NCBI GenBank assembly: GCA_027038505.1 | Contig: JALVWC010000013.1 | Coordinates: forward strand, 55,795-119,794 | Length of the DNA: 64,000 nucleotides | DNA from: Nanobdellati archaeon | GTDB taxonomy: Archaea; EX4484-52; WAPT01 | Direction of reading: 5' to 3' | Shown: positions 37,457 through 58,879 of the stretch, in pieces | How positions within the stretch are numbered: position 1 is the stretch's first letter | Layout of the letters: every line of letters begins with the position of its first letter | Notes under the pieces: model-generated | The model's database searches: none | What the model was told of the DNA's origin: nothing | What the model saw: the letters and a program-made list of their open reading frames with translations, nothing else | Made by a program: the position numbers and the translations under genes

Positions 37457-38215
37457 TCACAGCTCCCGTATTTCTATGCCTTTCGAAGTTATCTCAAAAG
37501 GTATGTGCTTCACCTCATGCCCTGTTTTCCTCATCTTAACTATTTTTATGCTGCGAAATTCATCCTCCCCGAACTCAAGATAGTCCATCAACACAACGCC
37601 GTCGGCTATGAACTCGGAGAGCTGATCCCTTGTGTAATACGGCTGAGAGCCGGAGATCTCGGAGGTGAGGAGCGATGTAAAACCGAGGGACTTAAGCTTC
37701 CTTATTAGCTCCGTGATGGTGGTTCTCGCCACGAGGGGATGGGTTATTTCCGCGCCGTCCTGAATCAACAGCTCCTGTTGGGCTCTTGCGTACTCCTTCG
37801 TGTAAGTGTGGAGAAGCGCGTAAGTATAGTAAAATGTTATGGAGTCGAGAACAAACCTCTGGGGTTTGAGATCTTTCTTAAGTTCGTTTAACTTGTCATC
37901 AAACAGAGGGATCTCATCCCTCTTAAGTTCCACCACCTTCAACTTGTTTTCTTCTTCCAGCTTTTCGATATCCCATCCGAAAACGGCGGCCTGCTCTATT
38001 ATGTCTTTTCTGACCTCTTCCAGCGCCACATACACGCCGGGCTCGTTGAACATAGTAGCACCGTTGATCAGGAACTGAAGGGACAGTATGGTCTTTCCCG
38101 ATCCGGGGGGACCGCACACAACAACAGCACTCCCTTTGGGTATGCCTCCATTAATGGCCCTGTCAAGTTTCGGTATGCCGAACATAACCCTCTTTATTGA
38201 CAGCCTGCTGGACAT
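37457..38215 (-). CDS. KaiC-like / RecA-superfamily ATPase (single domain, COG0467-like)
   Basis: Walker A VVVCGPPGSGKTILSLQF. 252 aa. Confidence 0.7.
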   Translation of the reverse strand: MSSRLSIKRVMFGIPKLDRAINGGIPKGSAVVVCGPPGSGKTILSLQFLINGATMFNEPGVYVALEEVRKDIIEQAAVFGWDIEKLEEENKLKVVELKRDEIPLFDDKLNELKKDLKPQRFVLDSITFYYTYALLHTYTKEYARAQQELLIQDGAEITHPLVARTTITELIRKLKSLGFTSLLTSEISGSQPYYTRDQLSEFIADGVVLMDYLEFGEDEFRSIKIVKMRKTGHEVKHIPFEITSKGIEIREL

Positions 38216-40595: not shown

Positions 40596-40669
40596 GCGCC
40601 GGTGGTCTAGTGGTATGATAGCGGCCCCCCAAGCCGCTGACCCGGGTTCGATTCCCGGCCGGCGCACCA
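40596..40669 (+). tRNA. tRNA-Gly (anticodon CCC) with C instead of U at position 33, CCA encoded
   Basis: GCGCCGG-TG-GTCT-AGTGGTA-TGAT-A-GCGGC-CCCCCAA-GCCGC-TGAC-CCGGG-TTCGATT-CCCGG-CCGGCGC-A-CCA. The anticodon loop CCCCCAA has C at position 33 instead of the near-universal U. Confidence 0.75.
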
Positions 40670-40792
40670 CAGGATCCCGAACTCAAGTAAGGATGTTTCT
40701 CCGGAGGAAGCACCGCTTGGCATTCCGGCAGGTACACGCTCATAGAAGCCGGATTACAAATTGTTATAAATTTTGTAGTCCCACATCCACTC

Positions 40793-41893
40793 ATGAACTT
40801 TGTTCGGTTTTGCAAGTTTTTCGTGAGAGAGTGGTTGTTGTCGCTTTACGCCCTGCTCTTTCTTTTGCTTATGATCTTCTATCACCCTTCCATCAGGACA
40901 CTTTTTTCCGTGCTCGATGTCCGCGCGTGCCTGTCAATCTTCGGGTTTCTTGTCGTTCTTCAGGGACTGAGAGATACGGGATTCCTCAGGTGGCTGGCGA
41001 ACAGGATCGCGGAGCGTTCCAGCAATGCGAGGCAGTTCGCTCTCGCCATGGTGGCCGGCACCGCGTTTCTTGCAGTTTTTGTCACCAACGATCTGGCCCT
41101 GTTCACATTCGTGCCCATCGTCATCGCCGCCCCCGTTAGAAGAGACCTGAAGTTCCGCATGCTCGTACTTCTTGCCCTCGCCGCAAACGTTGGCGCTTTC
41201 CTGTCACCCGTTGGTAACCCACAGAAGATCCTCCTCTGGCAGGCTTCCAGCACAGATGTTCAGCACTTTTTAAAGCCGTTTATGCTACCGTTCGCCCTCC
41301 TGATAATGGGGCTGTTCTCCTATACCGCCGTGCTTGTTCCCCCGGTACCGATCAGTGTTGAGGGGAGTCCTATCGTGCTCGACAGAAACGTGGTATATGA
41401 AAACACGCTGGTCTTTTCAGGGTATCTGATGCTGCTTTTCTTGGGACTGTGGTGGATCGGCGTCTTTCTGGCGGTTTGCTATTTCATCTGGAGACATCCT
41501 GGAGTATTCAGGCGGATGGACTGGGCGTTTGTTGCCCTGATACTCTTATTGTTTATGGATTTCGGGATTTTGTCCAGATATTTCGATATTTCAAAGTTTT
41601 TCTCTGAAAAAGTTCTATCTTCCGAAAAAGGAGCATTTCTGGTGTCGGTTCTGCTAACGCAGTTCCTGTCGGATGTCGCAACCGCAATTCTTCTTGAACA
41701 CTATTCCAGCCAGTATGTGGCCATAGCGATGGGAGCAACCGTGGGTGCCCTTGGCCTCGTTATCGCGTCCGTTGCGAATATAATATCGGTTCGCCTTTCC
41801 ACCGAACGGAGAAAGTATCTGAGATTTCATAAATATTCCCTGCCGTTTTTCATCTTTGCCCTCACCGTCGTGTGGTTGACCATGAGTGTTTAA
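40793..41893 (+). CDS. ArsB/NhaD-superfamily permease-like integral membrane protein
   Basis: 366 aa polytopic. Segment MVAGTAFLAVFVTNDLALFTFVPIVIAAP resembles the S.FLDN...P region of the ArsB/NhaD ion transporter superfamily. Confidence 0.4.
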   Translation: MNFVRFCKFFVREWLLSLYALLFLLLMIFYHPSIRTLFSVLDVRACLSIFGFLVVLQGLRDTGFLRWLANRIAERSSNARQFALAMVAGTAFLAVFVTNDLALFTFVPIVIAAPVRRDLKFRMLVLLALAANVGAFLSPVGNPQKILLWQASSTDVQHFLKPFMLPFALLIMGLFSYTAVLVPPVPISVEGSPIVLDRNVVYENTLVFSGYLMLLFLGLWWIGVFLAVCYFIWRHPGVFRRMDWAFVALILLLFMDFGILSRYFDISKFFSEKVLSSEKGAFLVSVLLTQFLSDVATAILLEHYSSQYVAIAMGATVGALGLVIASVANIISVRLSTERRKYLRFHKYSLPFFIFALTVVWLTMSV

Positions 41894-42025
41894 AACCAGA
41901 TAACGACCATTTTCCCCAGAGATGGCGCTCAGAGAGGAACGGAAGACAACGTTGACACTAATAAACATTAATATATTACCTTTCCCAAAATTTATAACAG
42001 CACTTGTGGTTATCAACATGTTGAG

Positions 42026-44050
42026 ATGAAGGGAGGTGCCGGGGTAATGGATCTCAGAACAGCGCTCCGAAAAATGGGAGAAATGCAGAAGAGGATGGGA
42101 TCTGCAGCATCAAACAAGTTGAAAACGAACAAAACAAACACGGGAATTATTTCTTCCGAAAAAAGAGGAGAATCAACAGGTTCTATCGCTTCACGAAATT
42201 CGCGTGGTGGTGATAGCTATGCTCGTACTTTAAAATTCAGCGGTTTACTTTCCAGAATGGCAAAAAAGCTAAAAGAATATGAGAGAATACAGGAGGAAAA
42301 GAAAAGAAAAAGCGACATACTACCTATTTTCGCCGCTCATGTTGAGGGCGGGATGCCTTCAGCTTCAGCCGCACCTCCGGCTTCCGGCATTGCTTCACCT
42401 CAACAGGTCAGTACCAATAATACCGGAGGAGTAGGTGGTGGGTTGGTTGAAGTGGAAGGCGCTCCTGCATTTGAATCTCTGACCGAGGTCTCGGAAGAGA
42501 CGCTCGGCTTCATGAAGGAAATGTTCTATCTGACAAAGGAAGCGAGTGAGGAATCGAAAAAGGAAATAAACCTCAAATATCCCCTCGTTCCTCCCAATCC
42601 GAAGCCCAACGAACCGGTTTATGCATGGGCTCACATCCATTGGGACACAAAACTGAGGGGTCTGATCTATGAAGTACACGAACCCGAAATAACCCCTGCC
42701 GAGAGGCAGAAACTCGAGGAGATAAAGAGGATCATGGAGGACAAAATTGACATCTCTCTCGATCTCATAGGGAAGGGAGCTGCCATCAACTACCTTAAGA
42801 GGATGCTGAATAAGGTCGTGACTGCCTACGGATTCAACCTCACCCCCAGACAGAGGGATATCTTTGAGTACTACATCCTGCGGGATTTCATAGGGCTCGG
42901 TAAGATCCAGCCCTTAATGAATGACCCGAACATCGAAGATATAAGCTGCGATGGTGTAGGTATTCCGGTTTTCGTCTATCACAGGAATCCACGAATTGGC
43001 TCGCTCCGCACCAATATCGTTTTTGAAAACAACGAAGAGCTTGACGAGTTCGTGATTAAACTCGCTCAGTGGTGTGGGAGAAGCATCTCCGTTGCTGAAC
43101 CTTTGCTTGACGGTAGCCTTCCGGATGGCTCGAGAGTTCAGGCGGTGCTCAGCACTGATATCGCGAGGCGCGGATCAAACTTCACGATCCGTAAGTTCAG
43201 CAAGGAACCTCTGACCCCTGTGCACCTCATGGAATACGGTACAATCAACGCAAAAGCTCTTGCTTATCTTTGGTATGTGGTCGAGCACAACGGTTCGATG
43301 CTCGTTTCCGGTCCGACAGCATCCGGTAAAACAACGATTCTCAATTCCATCTCCCTATTCATAAAGCCGGAGGCGAAGATAGTCAGTATAGAAGACACGC
43401 CCGAACTAAGACTGCCTCACGAACACTGGGTACCCGAGGTTGCAAGGACGAGCGTATCAGGAGGCAAGATGGGGGAGGTCACCATGTTTGATCTTGTGAG
43501 GGCAGCGCTGAGGCAGAGGCCAGATTACATCATAGTCGGAGAAGTAAGGGGTGAGGAAGCTTATGTGCTGTTTCAGGGAATGGCAACCGGTCATGCCGGC
43601 CTGGCTACGATTCATGCCGACTCCTTGGAAAAGCTCATAGACAGACTTACAACTCCTCCGATCAACTTACCTCCTTCCCTGCTTGAAATTTTGGACGTTA
43701 TCATTCTTGTCAAGAGGTTCAAGTACAAGGGAGAGTTTGTGAGAAGGGTGACCAATATTTACGAGGTCAAGGGATACGATGCTGTTAATAAAAAACTAAG
43801 ATGCGTTGAGGTGTTTACATGGAACCCCCGTAATGATGAGATAGAGGTTGCGAGCAAATCTTACCTTCTTGAAAAGATGAGGGAAATAGCGGGAATGAAC
43901 GAGAAGGAGCTCGCAATCGAGCTGAGTAACAGAGAAAAGCTGCTTCAGTGGGCCAAAGAAAAGGGCATAAAGAATTACCGGGATCTCGGAAGACTCTTTG
44001 CGCAGTACTATTCGGACCCTGTCCGTGTCATGGAAATGATCGGTGAATAA
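42026..44050 (+). CDS. type II/IV secretion system ATPase (archaeal FlaI/UpsE/TadA-like) with ~170-aa low-complexity N-terminal extension
   Basis: Walker A VSGPTASGKTT. Asp box, Walker B DYIIVGEVRGEEA and His box GHAGLATIHAD. The N-terminal 170 aa are Ser/Gly/Ala-rich and predicted disordered. Confidence 0.85.
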   Translation: MKGGAGVMDLRTALRKMGEMQKRMGSAASNKLKTNKTNTGIISSEKRGESTGSIASRNSRGGDSYARTLKFSGLLSRMAKKLKEYERIQEEKKRKSDILPIFAAHVEGGMPSASAAPPASGIASPQQVSTNNTGGVGGGLVEVEGAPAFESLTEVSEETLGFMKEMFYLTKEASEESKKEINLKYPLVPPNPKPNEPVYAWAHIHWDTKLRGLIYEVHEPEITPAERQKLEEIKRIMEDKIDISLDLIGKGAAINYLKRMLNKVVTAYGFNLTPRQRDIFEYYILRDFIGLGKIQPLMNDPNIEDISCDGVGIPVFVYHRNPRIGSLRTNIVFENNEELDEFVIKLAQWCGRSISVAEPLLDGSLPDGSRVQAVLSTDIARRGSNFTIRKFSKEPLTPVHLMEYGTINAKALAYLWYVVEHNGSMLVSGPTASGKTTILNSISLFIKPEAKIVSIEDTPELRLPHEHWVPEVARTSVSGGKMGEVTMFDLVRAALRQRPDYIIVGEVRGEEAYVLFQGMATGHAGLATIHADSLEKLIDRLTTPPINLPPSLLEILDVIILVKRFKYKGEFVRRVTNIYEVKGYDAVNKKLRCVEVFTWNPRNDEIEVASKSYLLEKMREIAGMNEKELAIELSNREKLLQWAKEKGIKNYRDLGRLFAQYYSDPVRVMEMIGE

Positions 44051-44052
44051 TA

Positions 44053-44991
44053 ATGCCGATTTTTAACAAGGATTCGCGCACAAGCCAAGCACATCAAGAG
44101 GAGGACAAACATTCCACCATGGTATATTTTGCGGGGATAGCCTACAGGTTGTTCGGAGATCTAGTTAACAGATATTTTGTGGATTTCTTTCGGGATTTAC
44201 AGGTTGATCTTAGAAAAGCAATGATACCCCTCACGCTTACCGAGTATCTCTCGCTGGCTGTGGGAGCCGCAACCTTCATGTTCTTTTTTCAAACTCTGTT
44301 TCTCAGCATCCTGTTCACCTTGCTTTTTAAAAGTGTGCTTTTTGGTGTGTTTGGAGGGGTGCTTGGAGGAGTTGTGTTTTCCATCCTTACATTTATTATT
44401 CTTTACATGTACCCCACAATAATCGTTGGAGAAAGGAAAAAAAACATTGATGACACGCTCCCCTTCGCGACTCTTTACATGGCCACCATGGTAGGAACCG
44501 GAGCACCGCTTGTAAGCGTATTCAAAATGCTTTCCCGGTTTAAGGAGTACGGGGAGGTTGCGAGAGAGGCCAAAAGAATTGTGGATGCTGTGGAGATAAC
44601 AGGGGCGCCCATAACCCGGGTGCTGGAGGATGTTGCTGAGAGGACACCCTCCGAGGCATTCCGCGAACTCCTGTGGGGGATAAAGAGCACGATAACCATC
44701 GGGGGTGATCTGAGGGCATACCTTTACGAAAAAGCCCGCGGATTCGTGCAGGAATACAGAAGGAGGCTCGCTTCCTACACAAACCAGCTCATGATGTTTC
44801 TCGAGATCTACATAAATGCTGTAATAATCGGTGTGGTATTTTTTGTGATCCTCACAAGCGTGATAGGTATCCTGGGTGTTGGAGCGAGCACAATCATCTT
44901 TATCCATTACGCTCTCATATTTGTATTGCTGCCCGTGGCGACGGTGGCAACGGTGCTGTTAATAAGGGGAATACAGCCGGCTTCCGCGTGA
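44053..44991 (+). CDS. type IV pilus platform membrane protein (T2SSF domain, TadB-like)
   Basis: T2SSF-domain pattern PFATLYMATMVGTGAPLVSVFKML...ITGAPITRVLEDVAERTPSEAFRELLWGI flanked by TM helices. Confidence 0.7.
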   Translation: MPIFNKDSRTSQAHQEEDKHSTMVYFAGIAYRLFGDLVNRYFVDFFRDLQVDLRKAMIPLTLTEYLSLAVGAATFMFFFQTLFLSILFTLLFKSVLFGVFGGVLGGVVFSILTFIILYMYPTIIVGERKKNIDDTLPFATLYMATMVGTGAPLVSVFKMLSRFKEYGEVAREAKRIVDAVEITGAPITRVLEDVAERTPSEAFRELLWGIKSTITIGGDLRAYLYEKARGFVQEYRRRLASYTNQLMMFLEIYINAVIIGVVFFVILTSVIGILGVGASTIIFIHYALIFVLLPVATVATVLLIRGIQPASA

Positions 44992-45984
44992 TTGAGGGGA
45001 AAAGATATGAGTCCTGGAATTTTTCAAAGGGCGGGTGACAGGAAGAAGTCCAAACTGGAGGAGAAGAAAACACTTTACGAATACCGTTATCTTTTCATCT
45101 TGGGTTTTTTCATCATCATATTGCTGGGTGTTGTGTTCAGCCAGATAAACTACAAGCTAATGCCACTCTTCGTAATGCTCGGTATGTTCACTTGTATCTT
45201 GCCATACTTTGTTGTTGAGTACATGGAGTTTGCCAAATACAAAAAAATGGAGGATTATTTTCCCTTCTTTCTAAGAGACTTTGCGGAAGCCATAAGAAGT
45301 GGGATGACATTTCCCGCGGCGCTGAGAATGACGGCCAAGGTAGATTACGGGGCGCTTTCGGCAGAAATAAGGAGAGCTGCGGCCCAGCTTTCGTGGGGAG
45401 TGCCGTTCGTAAAGGTGCTTTACAAGATGGGACAGAGAATAAGGGGTAGCAGAATTCTGAGGCAGTGCATAGCGATAATCATCGAGACATTCAACTCGGG
45501 GGGAGACGTCGCAACCACGATGGATTCCCTTGCTGACAGCATGACCACTCTGCGTGAAATGGAAATGGAAAGGAGAGCCGCATTAAGCCAGCAGATAATC
45601 GTCATATATCTCGTGTTTTTCATTTTCCTCGGGCTTCTCATAGGAATGGATAAGTACCTACTGCAGAGGTTCATGACAACATTCCAGAGCGCATCAACAG
45701 CGACAACCGAGGTGGGTGGAATCGGAGGCTTATCCATCAGAATGGAAGATTACTGCAATTATCATATCGCTCTTCCGATATGCGTATTCGGTAAAATGTT
45801 CGGATTTAGCGGTACAGACCTTTATTTCAAGAGCATGTTTTTGATTATGGCCATAATCCAGAGCGTGTGTCAGGGAGTACTTATAGGTATCATGGTGGAG
45901 AACAACGCAAAAGCGGGATTTAAACACATAGCCATAATGCTCAGTATATCGCTCGTGGCACTCCCACTCTTCCTGGGAGGTTGA
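44992..45984 (+). CDS. type IV pilus platform membrane protein (T2SSF domain, TadC-like)
   Basis: Second T2SSF domain FPFFLRDFAEAIRSGMTFPAALRMTAK...IIETFNSGGDVATTMDSLADSM. Abuts the preceding gene. Confidence 0.7.
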   Translation: MRGKDMSPGIFQRAGDRKKSKLEEKKTLYEYRYLFILGFFIIILLGVVFSQINYKLMPLFVMLGMFTCILPYFVVEYMEFAKYKKMEDYFPFFLRDFAEAIRSGMTFPAALRMTAKVDYGALSAEIRRAAAQLSWGVPFVKVLYKMGQRIRGSRILRQCIAIIIETFNSGGDVATTMDSLADSMTTLREMEMERRAALSQQIIVIYLVFFIFLGLLIGMDKYLLQRFMTTFQSASTATTEVGGIGGLSIRMEDYCNYHIALPICVFGKMFGFSGTDLYFKSMFLIMAIIQSVCQGVLIGIMVENNAKAGFKHIAIMLSISLVALPLFLGG

Positions 45985-46724
45985 GAGACATGAAGAGAGC
46001 TCAGACCAACGTGGATTTCGCGATAAGTATTACCATTTTTATAGTGGCATTATCGTTCTATTTCTACACCGCTGCCGGAAAAATCATAGGAAGTAATGTT
46101 GCACTGAGAGAACTTAAAAGGGAAACGCAGTGCGGAGGGGCTGCAGCAATTCTTATGGGAAAGCTCATAAACCCAGATATGAGCATCAACACCAATTACT
46201 ACAACGCATTCGTGAAAGATTGCCCTCTATCCCCTCCACCCAACACCGTGGACTGGAATAAATACGAGGACTTCCTCAAATCCATACACGGGGAAAATAT
46301 TACGGCATACCTTCGTATGGATCTGTTCATTGTGAGTTCTTACCTCTCGCCACAACCAGGAAACGATAAAATAAAAGAGGGCACTATATCTTTCAACGGC
46401 ACCACTTATCCGGTTGTAATGTGGGAAGAAAACGGGGTTGTTTATGCCAACATCTCCGGTGTTGGGAATTGGATAAAAAAAGGAGACGTAATTGACATAT
46501 TTGGCGGTAAATATGTTGTGGAGGATGAATATATTGAGAAAAAAAATGTGCCGGATGAGGACAAAGGAGGGTACATCCTTCTTCGAAAAAAAGATCCTAT
46601 CAAACAGTGCGGTGCTTTACCCCCATCACCCACAGAAGAGGGACGTGTTAGTGCGATAACTTACCGCTTTTTCGCGACATATAACGGGCAAATAGTCAGG
46701 GTGGACTTTATATGCATGGATTAA
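45981..46724 (+). CDS. pilin-like / FlaF-G-like protein with N-terminal class III-type signal/anchor
   Basis: MRDMKRAQ-TNVDFAISITIFIVALSFYFY is a basic N-terminus followed by a hydrophobic helix. 247 aa. Start overlaps the previous stop. Confidence 0.45.
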   Translation: MRDMKRAQTNVDFAISITIFIVALSFYFYTAAGKIIGSNVALRELKRETQCGGAAAILMGKLINPDMSINTNYYNAFVKDCPLSPPPNTVDWNKYEDFLKSIHGENITAYLRMDLFIVSSYLSPQPGNDKIKEGTISFNGTTYPVVMWEENGVVYANISGVGNWIKKGDVIDIFGGKYVVEDEYIEKKNVPDEDKGGYILLRKKDPIKQCGALPPSPTEEGRVSAITYRFFATYNGQIVRVDFICMD

Positions 46725-48487
46725 ATGTCAGGAATTACCGAACCACGATTAAAAAGCGGATCTTCGGGAATCAAAAACGGAAGGGGTTTTTGAAAACACT
46801 CGAGGCAGTAATAGCGGGTTTAATGTTGCTGATGTACATGAATTACTTCTCCGCTGCTCCACTTAAAATCAAGGGTACAGAAGCCAGGAATTACATGACA
46901 TACTCAACATTACTCATGGCCACAACAATGTCAGACGCTCAAAATACACTATACAGCCTGGACGAGGACGCATCAGGCAGACTGCTCAGAATTCTAAGCG
47001 GGAGAGAGTCCAAAATAAAATTTTATCTTAATGGAATACCCCGCAAATACCTTTATGTGGGATTCCTTTTGCCACCAGAGGGAAAATTCAGCGTGAGTTT
47101 GAACACCATTAACCAAGTGCCATGCTCGAATACAACCAACTGCACCGCGATTACTGGAAAGTGCATAGAGTTCGATCTTGACGGGAATACCGCATACTTC
47201 GTTAATGAAAGTGTCATTGCGCTTCTCAATGAGAGTGGTCTGTGTGATCCCAATCGGCCGGACCTCATGATTTATCCTCAAATGCAATTCGAATACGGAG
47301 GGCATTACTACAAGTTCTTAAGAAAGGTCGAGACAGGATCACGAACAATAAACCTAGATTTTCTCAAAATCGATAGATATGTTGCATTTCACCGAAAATA
47401 TCCGGAACTCAGTACGGGATCGTTTTATCTAAACGGGAAGGACATACACATTTATTTTGATCCCATAACTTACCAGTTCCTGACACCAGATCTAGATGCG
47501 GTGTTAATTTTCAACCGCAGTAATGGCTTCAGTCCAGAGGAGGTTGAGGCTCTGCGGGAATTTGCAGAAAAAGAAGGAGGTATTCTGTGGGTTGCTGATG
47601 TTAATGCGAGCTTCCCGACCCTTCTGGGAGACCTTGTGGGTGTGCGATGGAATGGCAGTTATACCTATCCGGGGTCGGCAGCGCCCTCCATCTTTAATTA
47701 TTATCTGAGCAATTTATCCAACGCCAGATACATCGATGGTTATGAAGTTGTGGAATATTTCGAGCATCTCTGGATAGGGATTCCTACACACCTCCTTAAT
47801 CTCTCCGCTCCGGGAGTTAATATCTCGTGCATCGTCAGCGGGAACACAACCCGCCCGATAAGATATGGATGGCTAAATGTTTCCGGGGAACCCCACGCTT
47901 TCATAGTATTGAACGAAAGCTCGCCTGTTTACAACACACTCTATATCGCGAAACACCCCGACGATCTTGACCTGTGTGACGCTCCAAACGATTATATCAG
48001 GGTGAATGAAACCAACAATACTTTCTGGCTGAATGTGAGCATTGGGGGACAGTACTATCTAAACAACATTACCCTGCGGAAAATCCAGCCGTATAGCGGA
48101 TCACCAATCTACTTTACCTTCAACAGAACACATGTGTTCAGGGACTTGACTCCCGTGGAAGAAGGATACAATGCTATAATACCGATTAAGAACGACTCCA
48201 CAAGACTAATAGTTCATTCCCTTTATGACAGGGTTGCAGACGGTCAGTTTCCAGCACCCGTGCTGATCTTACAGGAAATAAACAACACCTACAGATCTGG
48301 ATGGATGACCGCTCAGATCAACGGAACCGATGAGGAAGAACTTTTCGCTGATGCATTGTTATGGGTGATGAGAAAACACAGCTACAAGATGCTTACGGAC
48401 AGGGGCTACCAGTACAGTTTTGTTATTCCTGTTGCTTGGATTAACGAAACAAAGTTGATTGGGTCCGCTGAAATCCGGGTGTGGTGA
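46712..48487 (+). CDS. large secreted protein with type IV prepilin-like (class III) signal peptide and ~30 N-glycosylation sequons
   Basis: N-terminus KRKG-FLKTLEAVIAGLMLLMY has G at -1, F at +1 and E at +5 as in type IV prepilins. 591 aa with many N-x-S/T sequons (NTTNCT, NESV, NRSN, NASF, NGSY, NLSN, NISC, NTTR, NVSG, NESS, NETNNTF, NVSI, NITL, NRTH, NDST, NNTY, NGTD, NETK). Confidence 0.6.
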   Translation: MHGLNVRNYRTTIKKRIFGNQKRKGFLKTLEAVIAGLMLLMYMNYFSAAPLKIKGTEARNYMTYSTLLMATTMSDAQNTLYSLDEDASGRLLRILSGRESKIKFYLNGIPRKYLYVGFLLPPEGKFSVSLNTINQVPCSNTTNCTAITGKCIEFDLDGNTAYFVNESVIALLNESGLCDPNRPDLMIYPQMQFEYGGHYYKFLRKVETGSRTINLDFLKIDRYVAFHRKYPELSTGSFYLNGKDIHIYFDPITYQFLTPDLDAVLIFNRSNGFSPEEVEALREFAEKEGGILWVADVNASFPTLLGDLVGVRWNGSYTYPGSAAPSIFNYYLSNLSNARYIDGYEVVEYFEHLWIGIPTHLLNLSAPGVNISCIVSGNTTRPIRYGWLNVSGEPHAFIVLNESSPVYNTLYIAKHPDDLDLCDAPNDYIRVNETNNTFWLNVSIGGQYYLNNITLRKIQPYSGSPIYFTFNRTHVFRDLTPVEEGYNAIIPIKNDSTRLIVHSLYDRVADGQFPAPVLILQEINNTYRSGWMTAQINGTDEEELFADALLWVMRKHSYKMLTDRGYQYSFVIPVAWINETKLIGSAEIRVW

Positions 48488-48499
48488 GGTGAAAAAACC

Positions 48500-48889
48500 A
48501 TGTTTAGGTTTAGAAGAGAATCTCTAAGAAGGAAACGAAGAAAAGGACAGTTTTATCTTCTTGCGGTCATAGTCCTTCTTCTCAGTTTTGGTCATTTACT
48601 GTCCTCTTTGGGTGGTAATCTCGTCTTTGACCTCAGCAAGGTGATGGGTAATGAGTATTATCTGATAAACTTCAAAATCACGAGAGACATAGAGTTGCTA
48701 AACAAAACGTGCACAAGAGAACAGCTAGATATTTATGTTCCCTGGTATATGAGCGTGGTATCACGTGAGTATTCCAAACGGGGTATCGTGATCAAGTGGT
48801 TCTACGGTTATGGGTTTACTCCACGGATTTTGAAGTTCACCATAGCATCTGAAGACTACTACTTAGAAAAAATTATGACTTTGAAGTAA
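48500..48889 (+). CDS. small pilin-like protein with archaeal class III signal peptide
   Basis: MFRFRRESLRRKRRKGQ-FYLLAVIVLLLSFG has the [KR]GQ cleavage motif followed by a hydrophobic helix. 129 aa. Confidence 0.55.
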   Translation: MFRFRRESLRRKRRKGQFYLLAVIVLLLSFGHLLSSLGGNLVFDLSKVMGNEYYLINFKITRDIELLNKTCTREQLDIYVPWYMSVVSREYSKRGIVIKWFYGYGFTPRILKFTIASEDYYLEKIMTLK

Positions 48890-57776: not shown

Positions 57777-58879
57777 TTAGTCAAACAACATCTCCTCCTC
57801 GATTCTCGAAGCAAGAGAGAAGACGAGCAGCATAGCACCTAAGACCACAAAGGTAAGGTTCAGGTTAATGTCCATGCTTTTTCCCACGGCAGGATTCATG
57901 AAGACGAGCAGCAGGGATCTTGTCATACTTATGAAGGAAAGAGTCGTGGCTCTTGTCTGAGATTCAAGAAATTTGTTTATGTAATTTATCATAACTTGTC
58001 CCCTTGCCATTCTGAACGCTAATCCGAGGGATATAGCAACTATCAGCGCAATCCAGTTTGAGGATGTTCCAAGCACAAGGTAACACACAGCAGGGAGCAT
58101 GGCAGATAACAACAGATAGTTCTTTTTTCCACCAACCATTCTCTCCATTTTCTCAACAAGATGAAGCGTGATTATTTCGCTTGCTATTATACCAGCATGG
58201 ACAAAACCAAAGAGTGCAATGGGAAATCCAACCTGCATCAGCTTGGCCTGATAACACCAGATGAAAAAGTAGGTTAATGTATTGACTACAACAGCATCCA
58301 GCGCAAGCGTCCTGACCTCCCTCGAACTTCTGATGAGTTTAATGCTCCTTTTCAAAATCTGGGAGTAGGCGACATGGTCATGCTTTTCATGCAGTGCCGG
58401 CTCCTTCAGTGTTAATGCTATCAGAAACGCGAGAAAGAAGGGAATAGCCGTTAAAAGCATGGTTGCCCTCACACCAAAATAATGCGCGATCACACTGCCG
58501 ATAGGAGCCGAAATTCCCATTCCAAGCAGGTCAATCTGCCCAGTCGTATGAAAACCCTCTTTGATTCCTTCTCCCTTCCGATCTCCTTCAGCGTGTCGTA
58601 AACAAAGGCCTCCTCAGCTCCGGAGAGAAAGCTAATTCCTGTTCCAAAAAGGGATTCAGCAAGAACAAAGATCCAGAAATCCGGGTAGCTGGTATAGATG
58701 ATGGCTCCAGCTGTAATGAGGAGAAAACCGATGGCGATGGAAACCTTTCTCCCGAGTTTGTCAGCCACAACACCCGTTGGTGCCTCCCCCACCAAAATCG
58801 TACCCTGAAAGATGGCCTGCAACACCATGATTCGGGTGAAATCCAGACCGCCCCACAACGTAAAAAACGGGATAAGCAC
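57777..58879 (-). pseudogene. MFS transporter disrupted by frameshift and lacking a canonical start codon
   Basis: Two overlapping ORFs in different frames (58490..58879 and 57777..58520) together give an MFS topology. Upstream in-frame sequence ...IKELAGNIKKVYILNFLTSFEFFSAVLIPFF has no ATG/GTG/TTG before TM1. Confidence 0.5.

Follow-up and report, generated by a model that had tools for sequence, protein, structure and literature searches.

Modular pilins illustrate the way in which new functions are added to simple type IV filaments, and the characterised examples are almost all bacterial. They include PilB and PilC of Streptococcus sanguinis, CofB/TcpB, ComZ and GspK, and a location at the filament tip is predicted for such proteins (PMC8179133). 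Large SPIII adhesin-like proteins also occur in loci of archaeal type IV filament (TFF) systems (PMC4858521; bioRxiv 10.64898/2026.04.22.720090). For euryarchaeal clade 2 T4P a FlaFind-positive signature minor pilin of variable length (arCOG02911, 250–550 aa, all-beta) has been described, and KaiC-family ATPases are listed as T4P-associated (PMC4858521). Here we analyse a locus in a stretch of 64,000 nucleotides, referred to as the window. One of its genes, the target, on balance probably specifies a surface glycoprotein of modular, pilin-like build. It would belong to a minimal archaeal TFF system of a DPANN-affiliated archaeon and most likely act as a modular minor pilin or adhesin. It would represent an archaeal example of a modular pilin-like protein, probably from DPANN.

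Operon organisation

The target is the fifth gene of an operon with the following features (↓ marks predicted cleavage; slots are positions behind the platform genes).

37457..38215, minus strand: KaiC-family ATPase upstream of the operon (Pfam KaiC 2.2e-60)
41988..41998, plus strand: putative archaeal BRE/TATA element AAAATTTATAA, as read from the sequence, about 30 nt 5′ of the ATPase start codon
42026..44050, plus strand: ATPase for type IV filament assembly, FlaI/PilB-like, 674 aa, extended by about 200 aa at the N-terminus (Pfam T2SSE 8.7e-38)
44053..44991, plus strand: platform protein, first TadC/FlaJ-like half, 312 aa (Pfam T2SSF 1.6e-15; NCBIfam ArlJ/FlaJ N-half 7.4e-25)
44992..45984, plus strand: platform protein, second TadC/FlaJ-like half, 330 aa (Pfam T2SSF 3.2e-20; NCBIfam ArlJ/FlaJ C-half 2e-15)
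45981..46724, plus strand: slot-1 pilin-like protein, 247 aa, MRDMKRA↓QTNVDFAISITIFIV, recognised by the FlaFind-style rule given below
46712..48487, plus strand: slot-2 modular pilin-like protein (target), ATG start, 591 aa including the leader
48500..48889, plus strand: slot-3 small pilin-like protein, 129 aa, ...RRKRRKG↓QFYLLAVIVLLL (G↓QFY), with an SD-like GGTGA 5′ of it

The genes are tightly packed or overlapping, and three consecutive genes with class-III-signal-like N-termini follow the T2SSE gene and the two T2SSF genes. The slot-1 stop overlaps the target start. The BRE/TATA element is likely to be the operon promoter. Besides T2SSE, the ATPase matched Pfam PilB3_C below threshold (1.4e-5) and the NCBIfam FlaI model with 2.5e-131, where its 439 bits stay under the 550-bit cutoff. 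The six-gene order is identical in the genome of a 47%-identical homologue (L001) and in a MAG of about 93% nucleotide identity (L003), both with an ATPase orthologue in the same position. The adjacency to pilus machinery in related genomes, which the earlier note had proposed to look for, is thus real: the ATPase and the two TadC-like genes share the operon with the target, and this arrangement is conserved.

The slot-1 protein carries Gln at +1 and Asp-Phe at +5/+6 (A↓QTNVDF), an Epd/Flp-like register. It matches Pfam DUF7287 with an E value of 3.2e-5 just under the cutoff (25 vs. 27 bits), and its positional counterparts in other loci show weak matches to DUF7287 and Class_IIIsignal. Its place between the second TadC gene and the target family is conserved across loci. 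The published description of arCOG02911 fits this neighbour no worse than the target. The slot-3 protein, a candidate filament subunit, has no match in Pfam or NCBIfam; orthologues are present in L001 and L003, and in three further loci (L014, L101, L114) its position is taken by KG↓Q[FI][FY] proteins. The KaiC-family ATPase may be a regulator of the system, with uncertain membership; in L001 a KaiC-like gene lies directly 5′ of the ATPase gene.

Signal sequence and protein family

The earlier note had described a protein of 591 aa encoded at 46712–48487, with the N-terminal string ...KRKGFLKTLEAVIAGLMLL and a mature part of about 560 aa, far larger than ordinary pilins. All of this was confirmed: the frame lies on the plus strand and starts with ATG, the string is present in the translation, and the mature part after Gly25 comprises 566 aa. 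An SD-like GGTGG is found about 8 nt 5′ of the ATG, and there is no alternative ATG, GTG or TTG between this start and the motif. The N-terminus consists of two elements.

46712..46786, plus strand: basic leader peptide, residues 1–25, ending in Lys-Gly, with eight Lys/Arg and no Asp/Glu; its length varies in homologues
46787..46849, plus strand: hydrophobic N-terminal helix of the mature protein, residues 26–46, FLKTLEAVIAGLMLLMYMNYF, with the conserved Glu31 at +6

The class III signal peptidase site is predicted after Gly25. Residues 25–51 are the sole hydrophobic segment of the target, and AF2 places a helix at residues 14–46. A regex that emulates the FlaFind program, with the rule [KRDE][GA][ALIFQMVED][ILMVTAS] and a hydrophobic stretch behind it, recognised K24-G25-F26-L27 together with the hydrophobic segment, and this motif supports the proposed pilin-like nature of the target, i.e. 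a class III signal. The Pfam models Class_IIIsignal (PF04021) and Pilin_N (PF07790) did not match the target. Among the open reading frames examined in the window, no gene for a class III signal peptidase (Peptidase_A24-like) or for AglB was recognised.

The motif had been taken for the bacterial G↓FxxxE. Gly at −1 and Phe at +1 are indeed present, but the glutamate is located at +6 and not at +5 (G25↓F1 L2 K3 T4 L5 E6, i.e. G↓FxxxxE), in the same register in all family members. The PROSITE-type pattern for bacterial prepilins is G-[FYLIVM]-[ST]-[LT]-[LIVP]-E. In Pfam and NCBIfam no N_methyl (PF07963) or TIGR02532-type profile matched the target at E ≤ 0.1, and a prepilin cleavage-methylation profile was not matched by any of the 13 family members at E ≤ 1. 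N-methylation by archaeal class III peptidases is not known. Given the position of the glutamate and the lack of a match to these bacterial models, the motif can no longer be called a classic bacterial processing and methylation signature; it reads as an archaeal signature with Glu at +6.

A different conserved start in homologues would have spoken against the pilin-like reading of the earlier note. The [KR]-[GA]↓[FIM] boundary is kept in all 12 family members that bear an N-terminus and in metagenomic open reading frames. While the leader varies between 3 and 25 aa among homologues, the K/R-G↓F boundary stays fixed, and the glutamate is invariant in the same 12 members. The large family comprises only 13 clusters among 1.84 billion representatives and has no Pfam or NCBIfam model. 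The N-terminus [KR][GA][FIM]x4E[AG][VI][IF]A is retained in all ten additional members with a preserved N-terminus, which were retrieved by a whole-protein profile and not by the motif.

A metagenome scan revealed KGF-x4-E-[AG]-[VI]-[IF]-A at the extreme N-terminus of 68 open reading frames, mostly of about 135 aa, behind a short MNKKG-type leader; since the search pattern fixes the motif residues including the glutamate, their conservation in these matches is circular. Of the 22 frames with at least 2.5 kb of upstream DNA, 20 have a TadC gene on the same strand no more than 2.5 kb upstream, mostly at a distance of one gene (ATPase-TadC-TadC). G↓F-x4-E-A-[VI]-[IF]-A is common to many small archaeal pilin-like proteins of DPANN-rich metagenomes that occupy the same operon slot. 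A compact cassette recurs on many metagenomic archaeal contigs: the ATPase gene and two TadC genes are joined by one gene for an A/G↓Q..[DE][FW] protein and one for a G↓F-x4-E protein. This cassette may supply the pilins that were missing for nanoarchaeal ATPases in the 2016 census.

The slot-2 proteins form a size series. The forms of about 135 aa share the signature only, those of 338–442 aa add a post-helix domain and both halves of a glutamine-amidotransferase (GATase)-like domain, and those of 520–694 aa have in addition two to four copies of a beta module. Detectable sharing with the smallest forms is limited to the N-terminal 30–90 residues or so, and orthology across the series therefore rests on position and signature. 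On this footing, the sequence of the target reads as an expanded version of the slot-2 pilin-like protein of about 135 aa.

Ectodomain modules and sequons

Behind the helix the target is divided as follows.

46853..47077, plus strand: post-helix domain, residues 48–122, three helices and the first beta strands (AF2 secondary structure)
47078..47416, plus strand: beta-rich insertion module 1, residues 123–235, with four of the six Cys and four sequons; pLDDT about 86–93
47417..47656, plus strand: N-terminal half of a non-catalytic class-I GATase-like (GIFT/ThuA-like) domain, residues 236–315, DAVLIF...EEVEALREFAEKEGGILWVAD
47759..48241, plus strand: beta-rich insertion module 2, residues 350–510, a paralogue of module 1, with 11 of the 22 sequons
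48251..48484, plus strand: C-terminal half of the GATase-like domain, residues 514–591, ...GWMTAQINGTDEEELFADALLWVMRK..., with the family-invariant W531 and D540

AF2 modelling from a 13-sequence alignment yielded a pLDDT of 70.7 and a pTM of 0.64, with low confidence at residues 316–352 and 472–512. The core of the target is modelled as a GATase1-like alpha/beta fold. Structurally, this fold comes closest to non-catalytic members, namely STM3548, 3rht, IFT52, ThuA-like proteins and OST48, and a Foldseek search of the model against the PDB gave nothing significant. Profile matches stayed below threshold (ABC_transp_aux 16.5 bits, cutoff 34.7; DUF4350 16.5 bits, cutoff 30.4; LBP_M 19.2 bits on L080, cutoff 25.2). 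The ABC_transp_aux/DUF4350 and LBP_M matches map independently to the two GATase-like halves, and the equivalent of the C-terminal half in L080 corresponds to the end of the GATase1-like Pfam domain LBP_M (9.8e-4). A sub-HMM of this half also matches the intermediate members.

The post-helix region is predicted as three helices (pLDDT 54–74) and not as a canonical alpha-beta pilin roll; at this moderate confidence, the pilin module may be the N-terminal helix alone. The strand YLYVGFL in this region is probably the start of the GATase-like fold in the model. The post-helix sub-HMM matches all large and intermediate members (E values 1e-5 to 1e-25), but not the slot-2 proteins of about 135 aa. 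Module 1 is the most confidently modelled part of the target and is missing from the 338–442-aa members; sub-HMM cross-matches relate it to module 2. Its four Cys residues, as all six of the target, are conserved in P0002, the 47%-identical homologue. Across the family only Y411, W531 and D540 are invariant, and the 13-sequence alignment contains no conserved Cys or His column. A catalytic glutamine amidotransferase was rejected, since this alignment shows no conserved Cys-His-Glu triad.

Instead of the roughly 30 sequons claimed before, 22 N-x-S/T motifs were counted, none of them with Pro. Nevertheless, the exceptional richness in sequons was borne out: 2000 composition-preserving shuffles gave 5.3 ± 2.1 sequons with a maximum of 15, which corresponds to a 4-fold enrichment over composition (z = 7.7). 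The density is 3.7 per 100 aa in the target vs. 0–1.2 in eight other open reading frames compared. Half of the target sequons (11 of 22) fall in the same alignment column as sequons of P0002, and sequons are enriched in 10 of 11 other full-length family members (z 2.4–6.5). These sequence features suggest that the target is probably a sugar-coated (N-glycosylated) surface protein.

Possible roles and comparison with known systems

As a modular minor pilin or adhesin, the target would insert into the membrane N-in/C-out, as the basic leader and the single helix suggest. The conserved K/R-G↓F boundary points to a class III signal peptidase, encoded elsewhere, that would remove the 25-aa leader after Gly25, and the 4-fold, positionally conserved enrichment indicates that the 566-aa ectodomain may be N-glycosylated at many of its 22 sequons. 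The ATPase and the split TadC-like platform (44053–45984), co-operonic with the target, would pull the N-terminal helix out of the membrane, and the helix could then be assembled with the products of 45981–46724 and 48500–48889, possibly also with pilins encoded in trans. Glu at +6 may take the role of Glu5 of bacterial pilins; this analogy is an assumption, since the residue is not at +5 as in characterised pilins. By analogy with PilB of S. sanguinis, CofB and GspK, the target would cap the tip of a pilus or short pseudopilus, the most likely location for an ectodomain whose bulk does not fit into the filament body. The surface adhesin exported via the pilus machinery, as proposed earlier, remains the best reading in view of the pilin-like N-terminus and the pilus operon, without the bacterial signature that had been attached to it.

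Should the ectodomain be an adhesin that binds a host or glycans, the target is a concrete candidate for cell-cell attachment in DPANN episymbiosis and, with its 22 sequons, a good substrate for the study of archaeal N-glycosylation. Sugar binding has been proposed for GIFT domains (PMC7226087). A bolder version, which we consider quite unlikely, would make the K-G↓F-x4-E-A-[VI]-[IF]-A proteins the long-missing cognate pilins of DPANN ('nanoarchaeal') machineries and the target a 60-kDa glycan-covered GIFT-domain lectin, tip-presented or a giant major pilin, that attaches an ultrasmall archaeon to its host. If true, a GIFT/GATase1-like adhesin module would be seen on a type IV filament for the first time, and the search for determinants of host recognition in DPANN would gain a starting point.

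An alternative that is unlikely but deserves attention is that the target is no filament subunit but a bitopic membrane protein, cleaved or not, with an accessory or structural function in the machinery or envelope: a stator, alignment or S-layer-piercing component (cf. FlaF/FlaG, PilN/PilO) or a helix-anchored S-layer-like glycoprotein. The single N-terminal helix with a large, putatively glycosylated ectodomain, the fixed operon place beside the platform genes and the post-helix region without a recognisable pilin fold are consistent with such a role. Archaeal T4P loci include S-layer-like and other membrane proteins (Makarova et al., PMC4858521), and in the intermediate-size loci L080, L094, L124 and L067 no obvious small major pilin follows slot 2. 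However, a plain membrane anchor needs neither the invariant K/R-G boundary nor the following Phe and buried Glu. The same signature is found on proteins of about 135 aa, a typical pilin size, and the sister class III motifs of the flanking genes (A↓Q...DF, G↓QFY) resemble sets of minor pilins.

It is distinctly improbable that the arrangement is bindosome-like, with the target as a protein that carries a class III signal, binds a ligand or substrate and, from a short pseudopilus near the membrane, scavenges nutrients rather than mediating adhesion. DPANN archaea depend on scavenged nutrients, which counts for this possibility, as does the sugar binding proposed for GIFT domains. The functionalisation of TFF machineries by SPIII-bearing binding proteins has been proposed as a widespread feature of archaea (bioRxiv 10.64898/2026.04.22.720090). 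The ATPase has a secondary NCBIfam match to the bindosome ATPase BasE (5.8e-71), but its score is far under the FlaI score and under the cutoff of the BasE model itself. Furthermore, none of the adjacent genes encodes an ABC transporter, the region of the upstream CitMHS transporter gene is different in the closest relative, and the fold of the target differs from that of periplasmic binding proteins.

A giant pilin or sheath, with the target as major subunit of a glycan-coated filament of unusual thickness, is in our view very improbable; the idea of a sheath comes from the earlier note. In giant bacterial flagellins the outer domains extend radially, and the target ectodomain could do likewise. 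In most related loci the slot-1 gene and a slot-2 gene for about 135 aa are the sole pilin-like genes beside the machinery, so slot 2 may encode the major pilin there. A mature pilin of 566 aa would, however, exceed every characterised major pilin several times over in size. The translational coupling of the target, whose start overlaps the slot-1 stop, is typical of low-abundance minor pilins, and a small pilin-like gene (48500–48889) comes next, as it does after the 694-aa homologue in L014. Archaeal major pilins are, moreover, often encoded in trans (PMC4858521). Finally, it is hardly credible that the pilin-like signal merely exports an enzyme (amidotransferase, peptidase or glycosidase-associated domain), secreted or anchored at the surface, in the manner of type II secretion pseudopilins or substrates, as the Cys-His-Glu triad is lacking, the nucleophile-elbow position reads [ASTVQ]-[DN], the best structural matches are non-catalytic and no catalytic Pfam or NCBIfam domain was detected.

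The preferred reading, a modular pilin-like surface glycoprotein, agrees with the layout of archaeal clade 2 or system 1–2 T4P loci as given by Makarova et al. 2016 (PMC4858521) and by Sivabalasarma and Albers 2026 (bioRxiv 10.64898/2026.04.22.720090). These share with the present locus a PilB3_C-like ATPase C-terminus, two tadC-like genes, several downstream FlaFind-positive genes, one large SPIII protein and a KaiC-family ATPase nearby. The adhesins described in archaeal T4P loci are PilY/DUF2341-like or Ig-rich, unlike the target. Compared by description only, arCOG02911 is all-beta and Ig-like, whereas the target has an alpha/beta GATase-like core.

The weak matches to two haloarchaeal families suggest that a cassette of the same two genes is present in the pil loci of haloarchaea: the slot-1 protein and its counterparts reach 25–26 bits vs. 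the 27-bit cutoff of DUF7287 (PF23958), and slot-2 N-termini weakly match the first 25–45 positions or so of DUF7288 (PF23959), all of these matches being sub-threshold and confined to the N-terminal helix. The target itself does not match DUF7288, which with only 184 positions lacks the GATase-like and beta modules. Methanococcus Epd pilins (DUF361, Q-x-S-x-E-F) and bacterial Flp/TadE/TadF (G↓xxxxE[YF]) share with the present system the split TadB/TadC-like platform, and with the target an acidic residue that is conserved near the start of the mature helix. Such a residue near +5 is already known from Epd/DUF361-type archaeal pilins, and A↓QTNVDF of slot 1 fits this register exactly. The target differs by Phe at +1, Glu at +6 and a following Ala instead of an aromatic residue.

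GIFT-domain and other non-catalytic GATase-like proteins (GldG, IFT52 N-domain, OST48/Wbp1, ThuA-like, STM3548) are 10–16% identical to the target. Unlike in these, the domain of the target is split by two beta modules and fused to a pilin-type N-terminus, and a functional connection with ABC transporters, intraflagellar transport or oligosaccharyltransferase is lacking. No description of a GIFT/ThuA-like GATase1 fold with two beta insertions on pilins was found, leaving aside the 264 architectures of Dataset S1 of PMC8179133. The bacterial modular pilins resemble the target in the class III signal and hydrophobic helix that bear a bulky effector module, in the joint encoding with an assembly ATPase, a platform and small pilin genes, and in the expected tip location and ligand-binding role; in GspK and ComZ the module is likewise inserted inside a domain. 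In contrast to them, the target has Glu at +6 and no match to a bacterial N-methylation domain, is probably heavily N-glycosylated and belongs to an archaeal machinery with a FlaI-like ATPase and a FlaJ/TadC-like platform.

Operon and N-terminus of the pilin-like gene

The open reading frame of the pilin-like protein proposed in the earlier note (here, the target) was recovered exactly, at 46712-48487 (+) with an ATG start and 591 codons, and the strand opposite to it is stop-rich throughout. It is the fifth of six genes in a tightly packed, same-strand cluster, in which the genes before and after it are termed slot-1 and slot-3 and its own position slot-2.

Features of the gene cluster (arrows in N-termini mark predicted cleavage)
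about 30 nt 5′ of the ATPase start: BRE/TATA-like element AAAATTTATAA
42026-44050 (+): FlaI/PilB-like ATPase (Pfam T2SSE, 8.7e-38; PilB3_C just sub-threshold; NCBIfam FlaI, 2.5e-131, below cutoff)
44053-44991 (+): first half-size FlaJ/TadC-like platform gene (T2SSF)
44992-45984 (+): second half-size FlaJ/TadC-like platform gene (T2SSF)
45981-46724 (+): slot-1 gene, 247 aa, class-III-type N-terminus MRDMKRA↓QTNVDFAISITIFIV; DUF7287 just sub-threshold
46712-48487 (+): target gene, 591 aa
48500-48889 (+): slot-3 gene, 129 aa, N-terminus ...RRKRRKG↓QFYLLAVIVLLL

The target begins with MHGLNVRNYRTTIKKRIFGNQKRKG↓FLKTLEAVIAGLMLLMYMNYF, cleavage being predicted after G25. Its leader carries eight basic and no acidic residues, and residues 25-51 are the sole hydrophobic segment in the entire protein. 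The ATG overlaps the stop codon of the preceding gene and lies about 8 nt downstream of an SD-like GGTGG; as no alternative ATG, GTG or TTG was found between it and the motif, an internal start shortening the 25-aa leader was ruled out. The N-terminus had been taken for a bacterial G↓FxxxE motif with Glu at +5. The actual motif is G↓FxxxxE, since F-L-K-T-L-E puts the Glu at +6 (Phe = +1). With this spacing and no N_methyl profile match in Pfam or NCBIfam, a bacterial-type prepilin of the N-methylation family was rejected. By motif and context the target belongs to the archaeal class III signal proteins, while the Pfam models for these do not match it.

In the slot-1 protein, position +1 is Gln and +5/+6 are Asp-Phe, a register it shares with Epd (DUF361) pilins and with bacterial Flp/TadE/TadF; positional counterparts of its gene are present in nearly all related loci. 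The slot-3 protein matches nothing in Pfam or NCBIfam and is perhaps the true filament subunit of the system. Residues 1-200 of the ATPase (42026-42630, +) form a Ser/Gly/Ala-rich, low-complexity N-terminal extension outside all profile matches, which begin at about residue 200. The counterparts of the ATPase in the locus of the 47%-identical homologue (L001) and in a close relative (L003) are of similar length (662 and 670 aa), and many metagenomic ones have about 510-550 aa.

The operon lies among housekeeping genes typical of archaea (RFC large subunit, CDC48, KaiC-like, ribosomal proteins, RNA polymerase). Neither a class III signal peptidase nor AglB was recognised within the 64-kb window. 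KaiC-like ATPases are proposed regulators of archaeal type IV pili; a KaiC-family ATPase gene lies upstream of the operon (37457-38215, −; Pfam KaiC 2.2e-60) and also in L001 (4109-4873, −). The window shares about 92-93% DNA identity with the L003 contig. A CitMHS-family transporter gene (40793-41893) adjoins tRNA-Gly (40596-40669), and the stretch containing it (40681-41961, about 1280 bp) does not align with L003:4539-5260 (about 720 bp); the difference amounts to an indel or replacement at strain level, next to the tRNA gene. Two neighbouring ORFs at 57777-58879 (−), one of 247 aa and the other of 129 aa with a 31-nt overlap, match the C-terminal and N-terminal parts of MFS_1, respectively, suggesting that an MFS gene has been split or frameshifted.

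Relatives of the target and a recurrent cassette

Relatives of the whole protein are few. A word-indexed search of 5.8 billion proteins returned only the target and one 47%-identical homologue of 562 aa, and repeating it with a 13-sequence alignment gave no further homologues. A HMMER scan of 1.84 billion cluster representatives yielded 13 proteins in all, four of them at E ≤ 1e-30, and in a genome-collection scan with the four closest sequences no genome came up beyond the two known before. No family member could be assigned to Pfam or NCBIfam, and PDB sequences searched with a profile yielded no meaningful match. All 12 family sequences with an N-terminus have [KR]-[GA]-[FIM]-x4-E-[AG]-[VI]-[IF]-A in common behind a leader of a few to 25 residues. 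The members had been retrieved by a whole-length profile, so that their agreement in the signature was not built in by the search.

A metagenome collection was scanned with a degenerate DNA pattern for KGF-x4-E-[AG]-[VI]-[IF]-A, yielding at least 120 loci. In at least 68 ORFs from new loci the signature stands at the extreme N-terminus, a position independent of the search pattern, typically after a leader like MNKKG. Lengths of only 125-210 aa predominate among the matches listed. On contigs that extend far enough, ATPase, TadC1 and TadC2 are followed by one gene and then by the signature-bearing gene. The expectation that homologues adjoin pilus machinery was borne out: the 47%-identical homologue has the same six-gene order, with RFC and CDC48 downstream and the KaiC-like gene upstream, and among the matches listed a same-strand TadC lies within 2.5 kb of the ORF in 20 of the 22 cases where the upstream DNA extends for 2.5 kb or more, usually at a distance of 450-800 bp. 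The N-terminal motif is thus not an imported bacterial feature but the archaeal signature of one component in a recurrent minimal type IV filament cassette.

The slot-1 genes (150-410 aa) have a signature of their own, [KR][GA]↓Q/x...[DE][FWM] (e.g. RRA↓QVNIEF, KA↓QISIEF, KKG↓DVHIDW); the acidic residue at +5 and the aromatic one directly after it make this an Epd/Flp-like register. Their products repeatedly match Pfam DUF7287 just below threshold, and slot-2 N-termini match the start of DUF7288 weakly; no paper on DUF7287/7288/7289 was found. In L014, L101 and L114 a slot-3 protein starting with KG↓Q[FI][FY] follows the slot-2 gene, like the 129-aa gene of the window.

The compact form of the cassette occurs in many metagenomic contigs (L005-L124; e.g. 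L046:1-4996, L061:986-6201, L083:4448-9479), several of them from Hainich groundwater 0.1-µm-fraction assemblies. It comprises the ATPase, TadC1, TadC2, an approximately 240-aa [KR]G↓..H[VI][DE][WM] protein and, as last gene, an approximately 135-aa MNKKG↓F[ILVM][RK][TI][LV]EA[VI]IA protein. None of the small cassette proteins tested had a significant Pfam or NCBIfam match. They may be the missing pilins of the DPANN archaea, which make up the kingdom Nanobdellati, and the cassette is a candidate source of pilins for nanoarchaeal ATPases. At L114:664-1623 and L101:5689-6129 the slot-1/2/3 cassette is adjoined by genes for PilA-type pilins whose N-terminus, MKKGISPL[IV]..., is the one customary in archaea; this ties the cassette to the PilA-based clade 2 systems (Makarova et al.).

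Modular architecture and fold

The slot-2 proteins form a size series of about 135, 338-442 and 520-694 aa. The smallest have only the N-terminal helix region in common with the target; a sub-HMM of target residues 48-122 detected no homology beyond the helix, and thus only shared signature and operon position are claimed for them. Six forms of 338-442 aa (L080, L088, L067, L094, L124, L026) add the post-helix domain (48-122, target numbering) and a middle block (236-315), and mostly also a C-terminal block (514-591). The target and the other forms of 520-694 aa have further beta-rich modules, in the target at 123-235 and 350-510 (47078-47416 and 47759-48241). The sub-HMM of either module matches the other one, which identifies the modules as paralogous repeats, and L014 has more copies. 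In distant relatives (P0007, P0009-P0012) each copy carries a D-x-D-x-D-G-like Asp-rich loop (e.g. IDTDGNGVLDEP, YVDFDKDYNF) resembling calcium-binding loops. In the target these loops are degenerate, and each of them contains a conserved Cys (C178, C422).

AlphaFold2 with the 13-sequence alignment gave a model with pLDDT 70.7 and pTM 0.64, best defined at residues 110-310; a two-sequence alignment gave an unusable model (pLDDT 37), so that only the former was used. Structural matches to this model were a GATase1-like protein (score 11.7), the IFT52 N-terminal GIFT domain (11.3 and 9.8), lacto-N-biose phosphorylase (11.1), ThuA-like proteins (11.0-10.6) and OST48 (9.6), true glutaminases scoring lower. 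Foldseek against the PDB gave no match at E ≤ 0.001, and its top weak matches again included IFT52, ThuA-like and OST48 structures. Weak sequence matches to ABC_transp_aux/DUF4350 (target residues 258-299) and to the end of LBP_M (C-terminal block of L080) fall independently on either half of the domain (236-315 plus 514-591). As modelled, the domain is GATase1-like at the level of fold only. No Cys or His is conserved in the target family and only Y411, W531 and D540 are invariant, which indicates a non-catalytic domain; lacking a triad, a catalytic amidotransferase was ruled out. GIFT domains are proposed sugar binders (PMC7226087).

Sequon enrichment and comparison with known systems

The count of roughly 30 sequons in the earlier note was too high, the target having 22 N-x-S/T sites, but the dense enrichment holds: 2000 composition-preserving shuffles gave 5.3 ± 2.1 with a maximum of 15. 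Sequon density is 3.7 per 100 aa vs. 0-1.2 in eight comparison ORFs. Half of the sites (11 of 22) share an alignment column with sequons of the 47%-identical homologue, and enrichment is family-wide (z 2.4-7.7 in 11 of 12 full-length members).

The description that suits the target best is that of a modular pilin-like protein, in which a class-III-signal helix bears a large effector module which, judged from its sequons, is probably heavily N-glycosylated. The co-operonic ATPase and platform would assemble it, and the small pilin-like proteins encoded on either side would be its partners. An accessory or envelope protein that stays in the membrane, outside any filament, would fit the single hydrophobic segment; set against the conserved signature and the class-III-type N-termini of the flanking genes this reading is unlikely. 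A bindosome-like binding protein, with which a GIFT-like domain would agree, is a still more doubtful reading. That the target is a giant major pilin is highly improbable, in view of its size and of the small pilin-like slot-3 gene that follows it. An exported enzyme is effectively excluded by the non-catalytic domain.

For bacterial modular pilins (PilB and PilC of S. sanguinis, CofB, ComZ, GspK), a place at the filament tip and ligand binding have been predicted or demonstrated (PMC8179133), and large SPIII "adhesin-like" proteins are recognised in archaeal TFF loci (PMC4858521; bioRxiv 10.64898/2026.04.22.720090). By analogy with both, we favour an adhesin or lectin that would sit at the tip of a pilus or short pseudopilus and bind a putative ligand there. 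Large SPIII proteins and modular pilins in TFF loci are known as a general kind. As far as our searches show, no description exists of the target family, of its GIFT-like effector and the inserts repeated in it, or of the G↓F-x4-E signature and the conserved cassette that goes with it.
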